36,671 bases of DNA from a virus, in UHGV virus genome UHGV-0271399; one strand, 5' to 3'. This document shows, in pieces, positions 5,242 to 36,221 of the stretch. Every line of letters begins with the position of its first letter. Position 1 is the stretch's first letter. Position numbers and translations under genes: made by a program. Under the pieces are notes generated by a model that was given only the letters and a program-made list of their open reading frames with translations, made no database searches and was not told where the DNA came from.

Positions 5242-5594
5242 TACGCCTCCGATGTAACAGTCGTTATTCCATAGAGAGTGTCGATTTCAGCGGAAAACAT
5301 GACACGTCGGGTCGTGGTATCCACCGTCGTATTGAAAGAGAGGATTGATTTAACGCCCCGCGTTTCCAGAATGCGTTTTCTGATCGCCAGGTTGTAAGTT
5401 TCCGGTTTTTGCCTGCCCAGCACGGACTGGATCCACGGAGTCCCCTCGGTGGTGTCGAGAAACCATTGCCCATACCACAATTCGAATCGCGTTTTTACCG
5501 CCTGCGCCACGGCCTCCGGTGAGTTAATCAGCCAGGTGTCATCACCGCTGCCAAAGGTGTAATCGCCATCGGCGTCTTCACGTCTGTATCGCAT
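5241..5594 (-). CDS. Baseplate wedge protein (gp25/gpW-like)
   Basis: 117 aa; small protein directly upstream of gpJ-like gene. Confidence 0.5.
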   Translation of the reverse strand: MRYRREDADGDYTFGSGDDTWLINSPEAVAQAVKTRFELWYGQWFLDTTEGTPWIQSVLGRQKPETYNLAIRKRILETRGVKSILSFNTTVDTTTRRVMFSAEIDTLYGITTVTSEA

Positions 5595-6346
5595 CAGTTT
5601 ACCCCATCGGTATTGCTTCCACCGCGCTGAACACCGCCATGAGTGTGCGTATCATCGATTGGCTTGCCGTTAGCCTTAACGCTCCCCAAGAACTCAACAG
5701 CACCAGTGATTTTTGAAGCCACACCAGAAACAACAGACCCCACCATGCCCCCCATCCAGGTTAACAGGCCATGAATGGTTACTTTCTCAGAAAAATCAGC
5801 CAGAGGGGCAACCACATCAAGACCACCCGGGGCGACAATTTTAATTTTCCGGGTATCAGGATTAAGCTCAAAATAGGTGCTGCCGTCGTCACTACGCAAC
5901 TGTGTGACACTGGTATTAATACCGCTAATCTTCCTCGCCTGCGACTGGGGACCGACAATACAAAATGCATCCGATAAATCATGCATTCTGTCATCGACCG
6001 GCTCCTGTATCCCACCGCTCTGCCACCAGAAATCAATACAACGATCGGCAAAAACGACAAGACACTCATCCCCGGCTTTAACCGGAAAAGTCAACGTACA
6101 GCCTCCGCCGCGCGGAAATACCACTGGCACATCCACCAGCAACGGGTAATTTTTGGTAATGCGGTTACCGTCGTTATCCTTTTCAACCGAACGGATAGCT
6201 GGCTGCACAACCGCCGTCACCGCGTCGGGATCGAATGACTGAACAATGCCAGGCAAGGCGACACGGATCTGGTTCTTTGTTGTTTCCCGTTCAGATTTGA
6301 ATGTTTCGGCAAGGTCGCCGCTGCGGGTCTGGTCAGATACTGCCAT
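5594..6346 (-). CDS. Baseplate assembly protein V-like / central spike
   Basis: 250 aa; N-terminal OB-fold-like region (IRVALPGIVQSFDP...VPVVFP) resembling gpV/Mu gp45. Confidence 0.5.
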   Translation of the reverse strand: MAVSDQTRSGDLAETFKSERETTKNQIRVALPGIVQSFDPDAVTAVVQPAIRSVEKDNDGNRITKNYPLLVDVPVVFPRGGGCTLTFPVKAGDECLVVFADRCIDFWWQSGGIQEPVDDRMHDLSDAFCIVGPQSQARKISGINTSVTQLRSDDGSTYFELNPDTRKIKIVAPGGLDVVAPLADFSEKVTIHGLLTWMGGMVGSVVSGVASKITGAVEFLGSVKANGKPIDDTHTHGGVQRGGSNTDGVN

Positions 6347-6361
6347 TTAGTAGGCTCCAGA

Positions 6362-6388
6362 AAGCAAAAAACCCGCCGGGTGGCGGGT
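6362..6388 (-). terminator. Rho-independent terminator after membrane-protein moron
   Basis: minus-strand stem ACCCGCC/GGCGGGT with 4-nt loop followed by TTTTTT; 18 nt downstream of stop at 6406. Confidence 0.6.
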
Positions 6389-6405
6389 TCATTATTGAAG
6401 TTTCA

Positions 6406-6645
6406 TTACTGCTTGTTTGCTTCTAACGCTTCAGCTATTCGGCGAAGATACTCATTGTTTTTAAATGAAACCATGATGCACTCAAAGAATATTCGGCAAA
6501 ATACAGCACATAACAAAAGCACTAAAGCGCCAGCAGCCTTCCCATTAACAAACGTTATAATGGCGGCAACAACCAGAAGTAACATTGTGATGCCATACAG
6601 AACGTTGATGATTTTTGGAGTTATTAATTTATCAAATCCGAACAT
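6406..6645 (-). CDS. Small two-TM membrane protein (moron, unknown function)
   Basis: 79 aa, two hydrophobic helices; AAGGAA RBS; own terminator. Confidence 0.5.
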   Translation of the reverse strand: MFGFDKLITPKIINVLYGITMLLLVVAAIITFVNGKAAGALVLLLCAVFCRIFFECIMVSFKNNEYLRRIAEALEANKQ

Positions 6646-6698
6646 GCGACAAATTCCTTATCGTGAAAGTAGAAGTATCACATTATAATTACGAGTGA

Positions 6699-7040
6699 TT
6701 AATCAACAATCTTTTTGCATGGAAAGGAACCGATGATTTTCGGCGCATCCATGCTGTTCTGCAGCAGTTGGACATTAAGGAATCGCGTTTCGGTACCAGG
6801 GCGACGAATGTATTCAAAGCCGTAGTTGTTACCGTCTTTGGCAGGCATAAGCCCCATGTCTACTTTCAAACCATTGGTACCCAGTTCGGTGATTTTTTGA
6901 GAGGTAACTCTTTCACCGTTGATTGTCGATAACTCGCCCTGGTTTGCAACCATAGTGTAGCCACCGCATTTAACCGTGAAGCCATCCGCCCACGCGCTGC
7001 ACGCAGAAAAGACAGCTAACAGAAAAATAATACCCCTCAT
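6699..7040 (-). CDS. Secreted protein with signal peptide (moron, unknown function)
   Basis: 113 aa; N-terminal MRGIIFLLAVFSACSAWA signal peptide; AGGGG RBS; inserted between baseplate hub and spike genes. Confidence 0.55.
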   Translation of the reverse strand: MRGIIFLLAVFSACSAWADGFTVKCGGYTMVANQGELSTINGERVTSQKITELGTNGLKVDMGLMPAKDGNNYGFEYIRRPGTETRFLNVQLLQNSMDAPKIIGSFPCKKIVD

Positions 7041-7043
7041 TGC

Positions 7044-8105
7044 TCATCCCCTTTGCAAAGCCGATTGCGTATACAGATCCGCCGCGCCACGCGCTTCGCA
7101 CATCATATCCATGTACCACGCCTGGCCCCTTGTATCGCCAGTGTACATAATCCCGCGCACAATATAAACGCCATCCGTTGCGATGCTGGCAGGCTGCGAT
7201 GTGGTGCCGCTGAGCGTGATATTTCCGTCCGTGTTCTGGTCGGTGATCTGCCCGCCGGCCATCGCGATATGGTTGTTCGACAGCGCGGTGCGGAATACTG
7301 AAGCCTGATCCAGCTTAATGAGCCCGTTAACCCGGATGTTCGGGTTAATCAGCGCGCGGACGTTTACGCCGTTGCCGATAGTCTTCTGTGGCATACCGAT
7401 AAGCCCCGTGGCACTGTTGAGCACAATCGCGTCGTGAACATATTCGTTATTCGCCACCATCTGGCGCTGACCATCCACGAACTGCCATGTTGCGCCACAT
7501 TGTCCGGCCACGTTATCCATAAGATGACGTGTCATGCCGAATAGCACCCGGCCCCGGGGGAAAACGGTAGCAGGCATTTCAGGCGTCAGACCTTCAGTCG
7601 CGCCTTTGGCCTCGAAGTCTTTCATCAGCGCGCGATTCACGTCTGCGACCGTATAACCGGCCGCCAGCGTCTGCGAAGTTATGCTGGTGGCAAAAGCCAG
7701 ATCCGTATCGGCAGCCTGAATCAGAACGTAAGAATCAATGGGGCTGTCTTTTCCTGTTACCGAGTAACGAATTTCGCCGCTGAAAATCATCCCATAGTTG
7801 CGGCCATCACTCTGGCCCACATCCGCCGCGTCGACTTCCCGCACGGTCCCGACGTCGCTGGCCGATACCTCCGGCGCGATACCGTCGTAACCCGCAATCA
7901 GACGCACTTTCGAAAACTCCTGCCCGGTGATTCGGTTCACAGTATCTGCCGAGAGGTTATAAATTTTGATAGTCCCTACCCGGGACGCACTGCTGATGTT
8001 GAACCAGTCGATCGTAAAGGTGACTTTAAAATCACTTAGCTCAATTCCCTGACCGTTCCCGTCCACAAGCTGCAGCTCGAAATGTCTCATCCAGTTCTGT
8101 GACAT
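7044..8105 (-). CDS. Baseplate hub protein (late control D / XkdQ-like)
   Basis: 353 aa; position after tape measure and small tail proteins. Confidence 0.5.
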   Translation of the reverse strand: MSQNWMRHFELQLVDGNGQGIELSDFKVTFTIDWFNISSASRVGTIKIYNLSADTVNRITGQEFSKVRLIAGYDGIAPEVSASDVGTVREVDAADVGQSDGRNYGMIFSGEIRYSVTGKDSPIDSYVLIQAADTDLAFATSITSQTLAAGYTVADVNRALMKDFEAKGATEGLTPEMPATVFPRGRVLFGMTRHLMDNVAGQCGATWQFVDGQRQMVANNEYVHDAIVLNSATGLIGMPQKTIGNGVNVRALINPNIRVNGLIKLDQASVFRTALSNNHIAMAGGQITDQNTDGNITLSGTTSQPASIATDGVYIVRGIMYTGDTRGQAWYMDMMCEARGAADLYTQSALQRG

Positions 8106-21732: not shown

Positions 21733-22284
21733 TTAGCCCATCATTTTTCTATACGCCTCTGCAGCCTGCTCCGGCGTTAAGTTGGTAATTTCTGTTCTGA
21801 CTGGTCCTCCATCAGCGCCAGTCACTTCATTTTTGACGTTGTCTTTAAACGCCTGAACAGAAACATGGCGCCCAAGTAACTCAAGGTTTTTAACCTTATC
21901 AGGCCATTTGATTTTCTTCAGAAGTGCGGCGCTATCTGCGGATACCATCTCCACGACATCCATTCCTGATAGCGTTGTGCGCCATACCTTAGGCCAGTCT
22001 TTAATGGGTTTTAGCTCACCGTTTTGCAGGAGAATGTCGAGCACATCCATCTGGTCGATTTCAAGAAGGCGATTAAGTACATATTCTGCATTAATACCAA
22101 CAAGATCATTGCGTTGCGCTTTCAGTTCGGCGATTCTTAACTTGATGTCAGGTTTTGACAAGTTTTCGGATGCGGTACGGTTAGCTGTCTTTGCGCTGTA
22201 CCCCGCCCGAATAGCCGCTTGCGTGGCGTTTAAATCGATGAGGTACTCGTGACAGAACATTTCTTGCTTGTCAGTAAGTGCCAT
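21733..22284 (-). CDS. Terminase small subunit
   Basis: 183 aa; N-terminal [31 protein letters not shown] motif typical of TerS. Confidence 0.8.
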
Positions 22285-22305
22285 GTTTTATCTCTGGAGA
22301 TTTTC

Positions 22306-22551
22306 GTGAGAAAATTAATCGTATTTGTATCTTTTTGTTCGGCTTTAGGCTTTGGCTATCAAGCCATAACCAGTCAAACATTATCCACAGCGCTAGCAGC
22401 ATTAGCGAGTTTGGTCGTTTTTCTAACAGCCTTAGCAAATCTAAAAAGCAACAAAGCTAAAGAGCAAGGTGTTAGCCAAACAATCGGCGATAACTCTAGC
22501 GGTATACAAATTGGTGGCAACATAACTATTAATGAAAGGGACAAAGAATGA
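22306..22551 (+). CDS. Small membrane protein (unknown; first gene of AT-rich cassette)
   Basis: about 81 aa from GTG 22306 with GGAGA RBS 5 nt upstream; two hydrophobic helices; stop overlaps next ATG (ATGA); no in-frame ATG, so start uncertain. Confidence 0.45.
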   Translation: MRKLIVFVSFCSALGFGYQAITSQTLSTALAALASLVVFLTALANLKSNKAKEQGVSQTIGDNSSGIQIGGNITINERDKE

Positions 22552-23453
22552 GCTTATTCGAGAAATCCGGTCAAAGTGTGGGTGATAACTCCTCAGCTAT
22601 ACAAGTTACAGGTGATGCCTACTTTGGCAACACCACTACTGAGGTCATGGCTATTTGCCAGTTAATGGTCAAAAGTGAAATGGCTTCGCTTCGTGAAGAT
22701 GCATTCGCTTTAGTCGACTCACGGGCTCAAGAATTTGGTCACCAAATTGCAGAAAAACTATCTAAAGATGTTGATGAAAAACTAAGAGCAAAACTCGCTG
22801 ATCCCGATATTCAGTACACCCTCAATCAAGCAGTCGTTCAGGTCGCAAGAAAGGGGTTTGATGCAAAATCAGAACTTCTTAAGGAGTTAATAGTTACTAA
22901 AATTGAAAACGATCAAGAAGACCAAAGCATTTTGATCGATCAAGCGTTAGATACAACATCCAGACTGACCACTAATGATATTAAGTTTTTGGCATTTGTA
23001 TATTTTTTACGTTCAATCAATAAGATGATAGGAAGTATAAATATCACAGAACTTGCAGAGAAAAAAAGTACTCATTTTTCACTACCTAACATTTCCTTGG
23101 AAGAAAATTACATGATCCATAGGTCAATGTATGCTGTTTATGAAACAGATTATATAAAATTTCTTGGAGAACATTTCACCCTCAAACGCCTAAATCAGCA
23201 GCTATTAGAAATTAAAGGCGTATTTTTCTCAGATAAAATATATAATATCAATTACTTAGAGTTATTATCAAAAAGAACGGGTTATGACACTCTTACATCT
23301 GATGCATCATTTTATGAAGCATTCCCAGCTACAAAATTAGTTCTCGACTCTTTTGGTATTTCAACCCTTACAGAACTTGACTCACTAGTCATCAATCCAG
23401 TAGGTATAATTATTGCGGAAAATTATCTCAAAGCTCATGGATATATCAGTTAA
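22548..23453 (+). CDS. Hypothetical 301-aa protein (unknown; candidate accessory/defence gene)
   Basis: long uninterrupted ORF, AT-rich, coherent codon usage, AGGG RBS; no recognisable phage structural or regulatory motif. Confidence 0.7.
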   Translation: MSLFEKSGQSVGDNSSAIQVTGDAYFGNTTTEVMAICQLMVKSEMASLREDAFALVDSRAQEFGHQIAEKLSKDVDEKLRAKLADPDIQYTLNQAVVQVARKGFDAKSELLKELIVTKIENDQEDQSILIDQALDTTSRLTTNDIKFLAFVYFLRSINKMIGSINITELAEKKSTHFSLPNISLEENYMIHRSMYAVYETDYIKFLGEHFTLKRLNQQLLEIKGVFFSDKIYNINYLELLSKRTGYDTLTSDASFYEAFPATKLVLDSFGISTLTELDSLVINPVGIIIAENYLKAHGYIS

Positions 23454-26844: not shown

Positions 26845-26880
26845 TGGTCAAATTTACCCAAGTTTATTCAAAAAGTCAAT
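26845..26880 (-). promoter_or_regulatory. Late promoter pR' with qut region
   Basis: minus strand TTGACT (-35; plus 26874-26879), 17-nt spacer, TAAATT (-10; plus 26851-26856), immediately downstream of Q. Confidence 0.75.
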
Positions 26881-26921: not shown

Positions 26922-27545
26922 CTAACGTGTGACCGCATTCAAAATGTTGTCTGCGATTGACTCTTCTTTGTGGCATTGCACCACCAGAGCGTCATACAGC
27001 GGCTTAACAGTGCGTGACCAGGTGGGTTGGGTGAGGTTTGGCATTAGCATCGTTACAGCGCGATATGCGGCGCTTGCAGGCATCCTTGAATAACCGACGC
27101 CTTTACATCTTCCGCACTCTTTCTCAACAACTCTCCCCCACTGCTCTGTTTTTGCTATATCAACCGCACGGCCTGTACCGTGGCAATCTCTGCATCTTGC
27201 TCCCGGCGTCGCAGCACTACGGCAATAATCCGCATAAGCGAATGTTGCGAGCACTTGCAGTACCTTTGCCTTAGTATTTCCTTCAAGCTTTGCAACGCAA
27301 CGGTATTTCCCCGATACCTTGTGTGCAAATTGCATCAGATAGTTGATAGCCTTTTGTTTGTCGTTCTGGCCGAGTTCATGCTTACCGCAGAATGCAGCCA
27401 TTCCGAATCCTGCTTGTGATTGAGCCATCCCCATAGCAGCCATCACATCAGTACCGGAAAGAGAGTCAGAAGCCGTGGCCCGTGGTGAGTCACTCATCAT
27501 CGGGCTTTTTGGCGAATGAAATTTAGCTACGCTTTCGAGTCTCAT
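26922..27545 (-). CDS. Q: Late gene antiterminator Q
   Basis: 207 aa near-identical to lambda Q. Confidence 0.9.
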
Positions 27546-35984: not shown

Positions 35985-36056
35985 GCGCGGCGTTACCGCA
36001 TACCAATAACGCTTCACTCGAGGCGTTTTTCGTTATGTATAAATAAGGAGCACACC

Positions 36057-36221
36057 ATGCAATATGCCATTGCAGGGTGGCCTGTTGCTGGCTGCCCTTC
36101 CGAATCTTTACTTGAACGAATCACCCGCAAATTACGTGGCGGATGGAAACGCCTTATCGACATACTTAATCAGCCAGGAGTCCCAAAAAATGGATCAAAC
36201 ACTTATGGCTATCCAGACTAA
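36057..36221 (+). CDS. cIII: CIII (FtsH inhibitor)
   Basis: 54 aa, AAGGAG RBS; [54 protein letters not shown]; not in track because under 60 aa. Confidence 0.85.
   Translation: MQYAIAGWPVAGCPSESLLERITRKLRGGWKRLIDILNQPGVPKNGSNTYGYPD

Follow-up and report, generated by a model that had tools for sequence, protein, structure and literature searches.

The window analysed here, by which we mean the whole 36,671-nucleotide (nt) stretch of virus genome UHGV-0271399, carries two small open reading frames (ORFs) between its baseplate hub and spike genes: ORF-A, for a predicted secreted protein, and ORF-B, for a predicted small membrane protein, followed by a putative intrinsic terminator (Table 1). 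An initial annotation, made from the letters of the window, had described the pair as a two-gene moron with its own promoter and terminator, lying within the baseplate operon and expressed in the lysogen. Its placement of the hub, both ORFs, the terminator and the spike, all on the minus strand, proved accurate, as did the good ribosome-binding sites that it ascribed to the two ORFs -- an AGGGGA Shine-Dalgarno sequence 6 nt upstream of the ATG of ORF-A and an AAGGA 9 nt upstream of the start of ORF-B. Neither product resembles a baseplate part, as it had also remarked, ORF-A being predicted to be exported and ORF-B to be embedded in a membrane.

Table 1. Features of the hub-to-spike locus and of the head of its late operon
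Feature	Coordinates	Strand	Description
Q antiterminator gene	27545..26922	(-)	PF03589, E=3.7e-56
PR'-like promoter	26879..26851	(-)	TTGACT-17-TAAATT; head of the late operon holding the locus
Baseplate hub gene	8105..7044	(-)	353 aa; phrog_196 baseplate hub, E=4.5e-88; left flank
Variable segment V1	7085..6768	(-)	hub 3' end plus ORF-A codons 1 to ~90
ORF-A	7040..6699	(-)	113 aa; ATG 3 nt past the hub stop
Predicted signal peptide of ORF-A	7040..6987	(-)	residues 1-18
Candidate sigma-70 promoter of ORF-B	6709..6682	(-)	-35 TTGTTG 6709..6704, 16-nt spacer, -10 TATAAT 6687..6682
Spacer between ORF-A and ORF-B	6698..6646	(-)	53 nt
ORF-B	6645..6406	(-)	79 aa, DUF4282; occupant of variable cargo slot V2
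Predicted intrinsic-terminator hairpin	stem 6390..6369, T-run to ~6363	(-)	GAACCCGCC-ACCC-GGCGGGTTT; right boundary of the cargo slot
Spike gene	6346..5594	(-)	250 aa; right flank; GGAG Shine-Dalgarno 6358..6355 directly after the T-run

The hub also gives a weak match to PF22759 E217_gp41 (E=1.5e-5), and the spike matches PF18352 (E=1.7e-44) and carries the Apex motif. The GC content is 55.4% in the hub (0.65 at third codon positions, GC3), 46.8% in ORF-A, 37.5% in ORF-B (GC3 0.39) and 51.5% in the spike.

Of 80 IMG/VR loci chosen for hubs of 96% identity or more, 76 hold both hub and spike, and in 72 of these 76 ORF-A fills the first slot after the hub, frameshifted in one of them. A different exported protein takes its place in the other four, either a 241-aa lipoprotein with an LTSC lipobox (cluster 13) or a 153-158-aa protein with an N-terminal hydrophobic segment, and a remnant of the ORF-A 3' end (MDAPKIIGSFPCKK...) persists after the replacement gene. 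ORF-A is also kept where the slot behind it is empty (L060, L075 and L107). Homologues lie directly 3' of the hub in Yersinia YP3, E. coli vB_EcoM-689R2, Salmonella SEN34 and Klebsiella Mulock, the second gene being different in each, and homologues of 27-68% identity hold the same slot between hub and spike in Pantoea, Dryocola, Photorhabdus, Yersinia, Serratia, Rahnella and Pectobacterium, where the flanking hubs are 57-71% identical and the gap downstream of the homologue runs from 29 to 2111 nt. One homologue, P0148, is fused behind a lipoprotein domain (LSGC). Since the same hub-to-spike position is held in close and distant relatives, ORF-A reads as an old resident of the module, with the second slot alone serving as a site where genes are swapped. 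The initial annotation had asked whether related tail modules lack the insert and had itself named presence throughout them, with a structural role, as counting against its view; for ORF-A, it is presence that was found.

A relative with hub and spike directly adjacent, which the initial annotation had suggested looking for, does exist in the distant Edwardsiella phage GF-2: its gene order is the same, its hub is 24% identical by local alignment, and its hub and spike genes overlap with nothing between them, so ORF-A is not required by this baseplate architecture in general. A separate observation concerns the SEN34 homologue, SEN34_20 (L003; NC_028699, 2391-2624), to which the annotation gives 77 aa; by tblastn, all 113 aa of ORF-A align there (69.9% identity over residues 1-113), and the deposited start therefore appears to lie too far downstream, with the signal peptide lost.

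Within its fixed position ORF-A is itself variable, and about six old allelic types of it, which make up segment V1, reassort among prophages whose hubs share 96% identity or more. Within V1, nucleotide identity is 40-57%, against 100% on both flanks (L059, L063); the breakpoints fall ~40 nt short of the hub stop and ~70 nt short of that of ORF-A, and the last ~13 hub codons are included. Between allelic types, ORF-A residues 20-62 show a nonsynonymous divergence (dN) of 0.3-0.5, and residues 63-110 one of 0.009-0.018 at a synonymous divergence (dS) of ~0.8; the hubs of the same phages have a dN of 0.02 and a dS of 0.31-0.40. So low a dN at such a dS shows that the conserved half of ORF-A has been kept by selection at the protein level and not by recent common descent, and the alleles, which predate the divergence of the hubs, must move by recombination. 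Only Cys25, Leu88 and Cys108 are invariant across 21-24 diverse members. Variation of this kind extends to neighbouring genes: in this set of near-identical hubs, at least two main spike classes can be told apart, ~95-100% and ~67-70% identical to the spike of the window (with a few at 82-91%), and three classes of the tape-measure protein (TMP; ~97-100%, 90-94% and 74-77%). These spike and TMP classes reassort freely, which makes the whole tail-tip region strongly mosaic.

The N-terminus of ORF-A (MRGIIFLLAVFSACSAWA, with cleavage before DG) begins with positive charge, continues as a hydrophobic core and ends in an AXA cleavage site; its parts, MRG, IIFLLAVFSAC and SAWA followed by DG, have at the sequence level what Sec and signal peptidase I call for. 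The six N-terminal types found among close relatives have no signal-peptide sequence in common, and all keep the charged start, the hydrophobic core and the AXA. ORF-A is predicted to be a Sec-exported protein. Two other envelope placements were considered and rejected. For a lipoprotein, most homologues have F, S, G or another residue where the window allele has Cys14 (in FSAC), and lipoboxes occur only in the fused homologue P0148 and in the cluster 13 replacement gene. For a Lom/OmpX-type outer-membrane barrel, rejected by inference, the mature protein of ~95 residues is built of 5-9-residue strands and has no C-terminal aromatic residue.

ORF-A belongs to phrog_3443 only, and searches of Pfam, NCBIfam and PADLOC gave no match for it. 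An AlphaFold2 (AF2) model made with a shallow alignment had a predicted local distance difference test score (pLDDT) of 58, and the addition of distant members brought this to 83.6. The model is all-beta, with 7 DSSP strands of at least 3 residues plus a short strand pair, and the mature protein is read from it as an eight-stranded up-and-down beta-barrel; the first strand contains Cys25 and the last one Cys108, and a disulfide between them probably closes the barrel. No significant match was obtained in a BFVD fold search, nor any match in profile and single-sequence searches of the PDB sequences. Avidin, PliC/MliC, BtaiB (an immunity protein of the type VI secretion system) and Cap15 barrels are 6-13% identical to ORF-A, a likeness at the level of the fold only, so no function was assigned from them.

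These features bear on one alternative, that ORF-A is a baseplate assembly factor or a minor virion protein whose hydrophobic N-terminus stays uncleaved as an insertion or interaction helix. Its tight and probably translational coupling to the hub, its old synteny and a C-terminal half more constrained than the hub would all suit such a protein, but all six signal-peptide types, unrelated in other respects, retain the AXA site, the invariant cysteine pair fits an oxidising compartment, and P0148 sits behind a lipoprotein signal (LSGC). Moreover, the four loci that have lost ORF-A hold an unrelated lipoprotein or exported protein in its stead, none of them structural, and GF-2, with the same gene order, does without any gene between hub and spike. 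In phage E217, gp42 is encoded between gp41, the hub, and gp43, the tail tip (L090, 7595-8128), and the cryo-EM model of the virion does not name gp42 among its proteins (PMC10329688), which also argues against a structural role for this position; gp42 has no signal peptide, looks cytoplasmic and bears no evident resemblance to ORF-A by eye. No proteomics of relatives, SEN34 included, turned up in our literature search. On these grounds a virion or assembly role for ORF-A seems very improbable, and we go on with ORF-A as an exported, non-virion protein.

The second slot is of another character, with 16 architectures in the 76 loci. Most frequent is a 243-aa TPR-like protein with a 142-aa HEPN-like protein (22 loci), followed by DUF4282 proteins of the ORF-B type (15 loci), a 266-aa protein with a HEPN-like protein (12 loci), a 192-aa protein with a YafO toxin (PF13957, E=4e-17; 6 loci), a DUF2335 membrane protein (4 loci), a weakly PycTM-like membrane protein (3 loci) and several others in a few loci each; in two (L060, L075) the slot is empty. 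The same variety is seen in the RefSeq annotation of E. coli. PADLOC recognised no validated defence system among the cargo beyond weak HEPN and PycTM matches.

ORF-B is a full-length member of PF14110 DUF4282 (42.2 bits against a cutoff of 27, residues 2-71 covering model positions 2-85 of 86) and also belongs to phrog_12129; a weak match to YbhQ was seen as well, and PADLOC gave none. Its hydrophobic segments, at approximately residues 11-32 and 38-60, are followed by a charged C-terminal tail, and by the positive-inside rule it is predicted to form a two-helix hairpin in the inner membrane with both termini inside. Its cassette is found at 99% identity or more in 84 of 5426 E. coli genomes, these being among the 353 that carry the module, within a module 90-100% identical, and near-identical prophages occur with and without it. 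ORF-B thus shows both the presence-and-absence pattern and the atypical base composition of a moron, as the initial annotation had proposed: it is a low-GC island with a candidate promoter, and we take it to be the real moron of the locus. ORF-A shows no such pattern, since it is present in nearly all the close loci and in all the distant relatives that have the module, and its GC content is intermediate.

The left junction of the ORF-B cassette lies within the last three ORF-A codons, between ...FPCKK and IVD with the stop, and these codons co-vary with the cargo. The -35 element of the candidate ORF-B promoter overlaps them. In a diverged cassette (L117, 87% aa identity) both promoter hexamers and their spacing are unchanged while the surrounding spacer has drifted. 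Other cargo cassettes have stronger promoter candidates, with position weight matrix (PWM) scores of up to 15.0, and a few are directly coupled to ORF-A. A promoter for the whole insert had been anticipated at 7040-7100, where the 3-nt gap between hub and ORF-A leaves no room and the best match in the hub 3' end (PWM 9.4) is unremarkable. The idea of an own promoter therefore survives for ORF-B, as a candidate between the two ORFs, and falls for ORF-A, which has no significant site.

A homologue of ORF-B occupies the same slot in Pectobacterium, and others, from Edwardsiella phage GF-2 and a Klebsiella sipho-type prophage, lie directly 3' of the TMP gene; the placement after the TMP gene points to a recurrent linkage of DUF4282 to DNA-delivery genes. 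Every DUF4282 gene copy inspected, those in other locations included, ends in a hairpin and a T-run. In GF-2 (L091, 3908-5816) a module of an Arc-like repressor and an Ant anti-repressor is inserted in the tail operon, between the TMP and DUF4282 genes and a Dit-like gene, which makes a further accessory site in a tail cluster of this kind. L117 is a degraded prophage in which a 434-aa ORF (433-1737) joins the first ~115 TMP residues to the hub from ~residue 37 on, indicating deletion of most of the TMP gene and of the Dit and plug genes; it retains an exported slot-1 gene, the DUF4282 cassette and the terminator.

The terminator itself is as clean as had been claimed, with a 9-bp stem containing 6 G-C pairs, a 4-nt loop and a T-run, and it ranks first among the terminator-like sites of the whole structural region (6390..6363). 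It is not private to the insert, though this too had been claimed: the order of hairpin, T-run, GGAG and spike ATG is the same in all 16 architectures, those with an empty slot or a slot-1 replacement included. Of the 24 relatives examined, which span several genera, 22 have a hairpin shortly before the spike start, the two exceptions being YP3, where it is weak, and a second Pantoea copy, where ORF-A abuts the spike. The stem sequences vary (CCCGCC/GGCGGG, GCCCAC/GTGGGT, CCTGC/GCAGG, CCCAGC/GCTGGG). When 20 distinct sequences from these and other close relatives were aligned, pairing held in 93% of cells and compensatory changes appeared at 4 of the 8 pairs, values reached by 0-2 of 500 shuffles, while slid controls are 29-61% paired. 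The predicted terminator is, by this comparison, a backbone element selected for its structure and not part of the DUF4282 insert. Elsewhere, the terminator/Shine-Dalgarno junction that follows the DUF4282 gene of the Klebsiella sipho-type prophage (CCCGCTCCGGCGGGTTTTTTATGCCCGGAGG; L109, 5240-5290) is nearly identical to the pre-spike junction of a SEN34-type relative (CCCGCTCCGGCGGGTTTTTTAATGCCGGAG; L092, Klebsiella ST340-VIM1phi10.1), a likeness that may reflect a portable 3' junction or just a common form of terminator.

With these results in hand, the view that ORF-A and ORF-B were acquired together, as one lysogen-expressed moron with a promoter near 7040-7100 and a terminator of its own, can be weighed. 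Both products would be envelope-bound, a terminator does follow ORF-B, and the GC content of ORF-A is somewhat under that of the hub, all as such a unit would have it. But ORF-A is syntenic in nearly all relatives irrespective of the cargo and stays when the bay is empty; the two ORFs recombine independently, an ORF-A of type T4 being found beside this very DUF4282 cassette; the gap from the hub stop to the ORF-A start is only 3 nt, and no significant promoter precedes ORF-A; and the terminator is common to all occupants. A single two-gene unit is accordingly most unlikely, and the reading that we retain is of an old resident, ORF-A, next to a separately exchanged cargo.

The prophage around this locus is a hybrid. 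The region of the window is 100% identical to a prophage beside torT in E. coli strain Rb-23, in which a lambdoid control and lysis region is joined to a SEN34-type contractile-tail module; its lysis genes are those for a lambda S holin, a GH24 endolysin (by RefSeq annotation) and Rz. The locus lies inside the Q-dependent late operon, since all the late genes, from Q through the tail fibres, are carried on the minus strand. Read-through of the terminator by Q-modified polymerase, the remaining part of the original proposal, is plausible because Q and a PR'-like promoter do lie upstream on the same strand, and it is left at that strength. SEN34-type tail modules 90-100% identical to this one were found in 353 of 5426 complete E. 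coli genomes (~6.5%), and such modules are also present in Salmonella, Klebsiella, Yersinia, Pantoea, Photorhabdus and other genera.

Several other parts of the window deserve mention. A Lambda CIII thermoregulator (RF01804, 88.5 bits, E=1.7e-20) at 36044-36102 on the plus strand shows the early region to be of lambda type despite the SEN34-like tail. A second strong terminator-like hairpin, GCCTCGC-ATTC-GCGGGGC with T6, lies in the late operon between Rz and a Rha-family gene (24830-24813, minus strand), possibly marking a further insulated slot for accessory genes. The small terminase gene and the Rha region are separated by two genes that run the other way (22249-23453, plus), one of them for a 301-aa LPO_1073/Vpar_1526-family protein with no Pfam match; they look like another moron or defence candidate. 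At the end of the prophage, past the tail-fibre assembly gene and again on the opposite strand, lies an Acyl_transf_3 acyltransferase gene (1146-2171, plus; PF01757, E=3.8e-26), likely a cargo gene for O-antigen modification; a similar acyltransferase gene follows the fibre genes in L089.

We thus read the region as a two-tier accessory locus in the late (tail) operon of a lambdoid/SEN34-type hybrid prophage, with a possible role in entry exclusion. Its anatomy and evolutionary history, as drawn from sequence comparison, we hold with considerable confidence; the reading as a whole, function included, we consider somewhat better than an even bet. The first tier would be ORF-A, an old, syntenic, non-virion gene translated from the late transcript directly behind the hub, whose product would be exported by Sec, cut at the AXA site, and oxidised and folded in the periplasm as a small eight-stranded barrel. 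Strands 5-8, almost invariant, would presumably hold a conserved partner, and strands 1-4 with the signal peptide would represent the approximately six anciently diverged, recombining types. The second tier would be a cargo bay reaching from the last 2-3 ORF-A codons to the conserved terminator. Here the ORF-B moron would be transcribed in the lysogen from its own probable promoter and the transcript halted at the terminator, which would keep bay transcripts out of the spike, wedge and fibre genes; during lytic growth, Q-modified polymerase coming from PR' would pass through.

As to what the two proteins do, one possibility is that both shield the lysogen, or an infected cell, by blocking the entry of further phage, ORF-A in the periplasm (as T4 Spackle, T5 Llp and Cor do) and ORF-B at the inner membrane (as HK97 gp15 and P22 SieA do). 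By analogy with known exclusion proteins this is the function that we favour, because both products are predicted to be located in the envelope, because both genes lie among those for DNA delivery, and because loci that have lost ORF-A carry a different exported protein or a lipoprotein in slot 1. For ORF-A we would nevertheless put it at a little under even odds, and for ORF-B we are similarly tentative.

Several results weigh against this interpretation. The promoter candidate of ORF-B, with a PWM score of 9.5, lies below the 95th percentile of the background (10.1), and none stands out for expression of ORF-A in the lysogen in the hub 3' end, where one was sought. Were ORF-A to be produced only late, it could not serve in classical prophage-mediated exclusion; it would then have to work in the lytic cycle, for instance against secondary infection or against the loss of progeny on cell debris. 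The modelled fold of ORF-A is a generic barrel common to many functions. Tests for co-variation of the ORF-A types with TMP, spike, wedge and cargo types revealed none, so its partner cannot be guessed from linkage. Homologues of ORF-B also occur as chromosomal orphans outside prophages, from which it follows that the DUF4282 family is not intrinsically one of phage exclusion. Finally, a full-text literature search on DUF4282, STY1065 and related topics brought up nothing relevant.

The chromosomal DUF4282 genes, unrelated to prophages, together with the weak YbhQ match, would suit a different role, in which ORF-B and possibly ORF-A tune lysis or host physiology, ORF-B as a holin- or antiholin-like hairpin or as a stress-related membrane protein of benefit to the lysogen. 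ORF-B does have the outline of a class II holin, with two helices, termini inside and a charged C-terminal tail. Against this, a full lambda-type lysis cassette (S/R/Rz) is already present in the prophage, and the phage homologues of ORF-B adjoin TMP, hub and spike genes, in three slots of the tail module, and not lysis cassettes. We regard a role in lysis or physiology as unlikely, though clearly less so than the structural and single-unit alternatives above. A narrower form of the exclusion model, in which ORF-A is a periplasmic inhibitor of muralytic enzymes (like PliC/MliC or T4 Spackle) directed against the cell-wall hydrolase of an incoming tail, was weighed too, but avidin-like and other barrels outscore PliC, and ORF-A has no sequence similarity to any PDB chain. 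Nor does the supposed target fit: the window TMP has no Pfam SLT match at E<=0.001, the TMP of GF-2 bears an SLT domain yet GF-2 lacks ORF-A, and the ORF-A types do not follow the TMP types. We judge this form improbable, and return to entry blocking in the broader sense.

Proteins of that broader kind are well established. T5 Llp, phi80 and N15 Cor, T4 Spackle and Imm are small signal-peptide exclusion proteins of the periplasm or membranes, encoded beside tail-tip or receptor-binding genes; Llp is a small disulfide-containing beta protein. HK97 gp15 and P22 SieA are inner-membrane exclusion proteins with the same linkage to tail genes, gp15 being encoded within them. ORF-A resembles the first group in being small, in its signal peptide and in lying beside tail genes, and Llp in its predicted disulfide and beta fold; it differs in that it is not a lipoprotein, has no sequence similarity to them and appears to be transcribed late.

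The classical morons, in the definition of Juhala and Hendrix, include lambda lom and bor and HK97 gene 15. ORF-B is like them in being small, of atypical composition, placed between late-operon genes, and variably present, with a promoter-like site before it and a terminator after it. Unlike theirs, the terminator here is a fixed backbone element that ORF-B did not bring along; ORF-A does not behave as a moron, and the locus has no sequence relation to gp15, Lom or Bor.

The cargo bay in turn recalls the defence hotspots that Rousset and colleagues are said to have described in 2022 in P2 and P4 prophages. In phage JBD26, Tab/anti-Tab genes lie between the terminase genes, and gene 30 is coupled to the late gene ahead of it, whereas the gene adjoining it is served by a separate promoter (PMC10884400). 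As in these systems, unrelated toxin-antitoxin-like, HEPN-like and membrane-protein genes interchange here at a fixed position in a late cluster between conserved anchors, and ORF-A, like gene 30, is coupled to the late gene before it, with a neighbour that has its own (candidate) promoter. What differs is the position, from baseplate hub to spike, and the phage lineage. ORF-A also differs from Tab/anti-Tab in persisting where there is no cargo and, being exported according to prediction, it cannot be a cytoplasmic antidote to the cargo.

Morons and accessory hotspots in prophages are thus already well known, and this locus is another such site; a literature search on exported proteins or morons in baseplate modules yielded no description of this position or lineage. 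A bolder and rather doubtful proposal is that ORF-A founds a family of periplasmic blockers of phage entry hard-wired to a contractile-tail baseplate module, with the bay as a defence hotspot. If so, its invariant half-barrel would grip a conserved component of entry, be it a factor of the host envelope or the tip of the incoming tail, an arms race between competing SEN34-type prophages would drive its hypervariable half, and ~6.5% of complete E. coli genomes would hold a previously unrecognised defence hotspot.

What goes beyond the usual picture is the deeply conserved exported gene welded to the hub, with its ultra-conserved and hypervariable halves, and the insulating terminator that belongs to the backbone. 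New anti-phage or fitness genes could conveniently be sought at the fixed cargo site, and the conserved terminator inside the operon offers a clean natural case of structural genes insulated from the transcription of cargo embedded among them. The partner of ORF-A could reveal how SEN34-type phages cross the periplasm, or how lysogens block that crossing.

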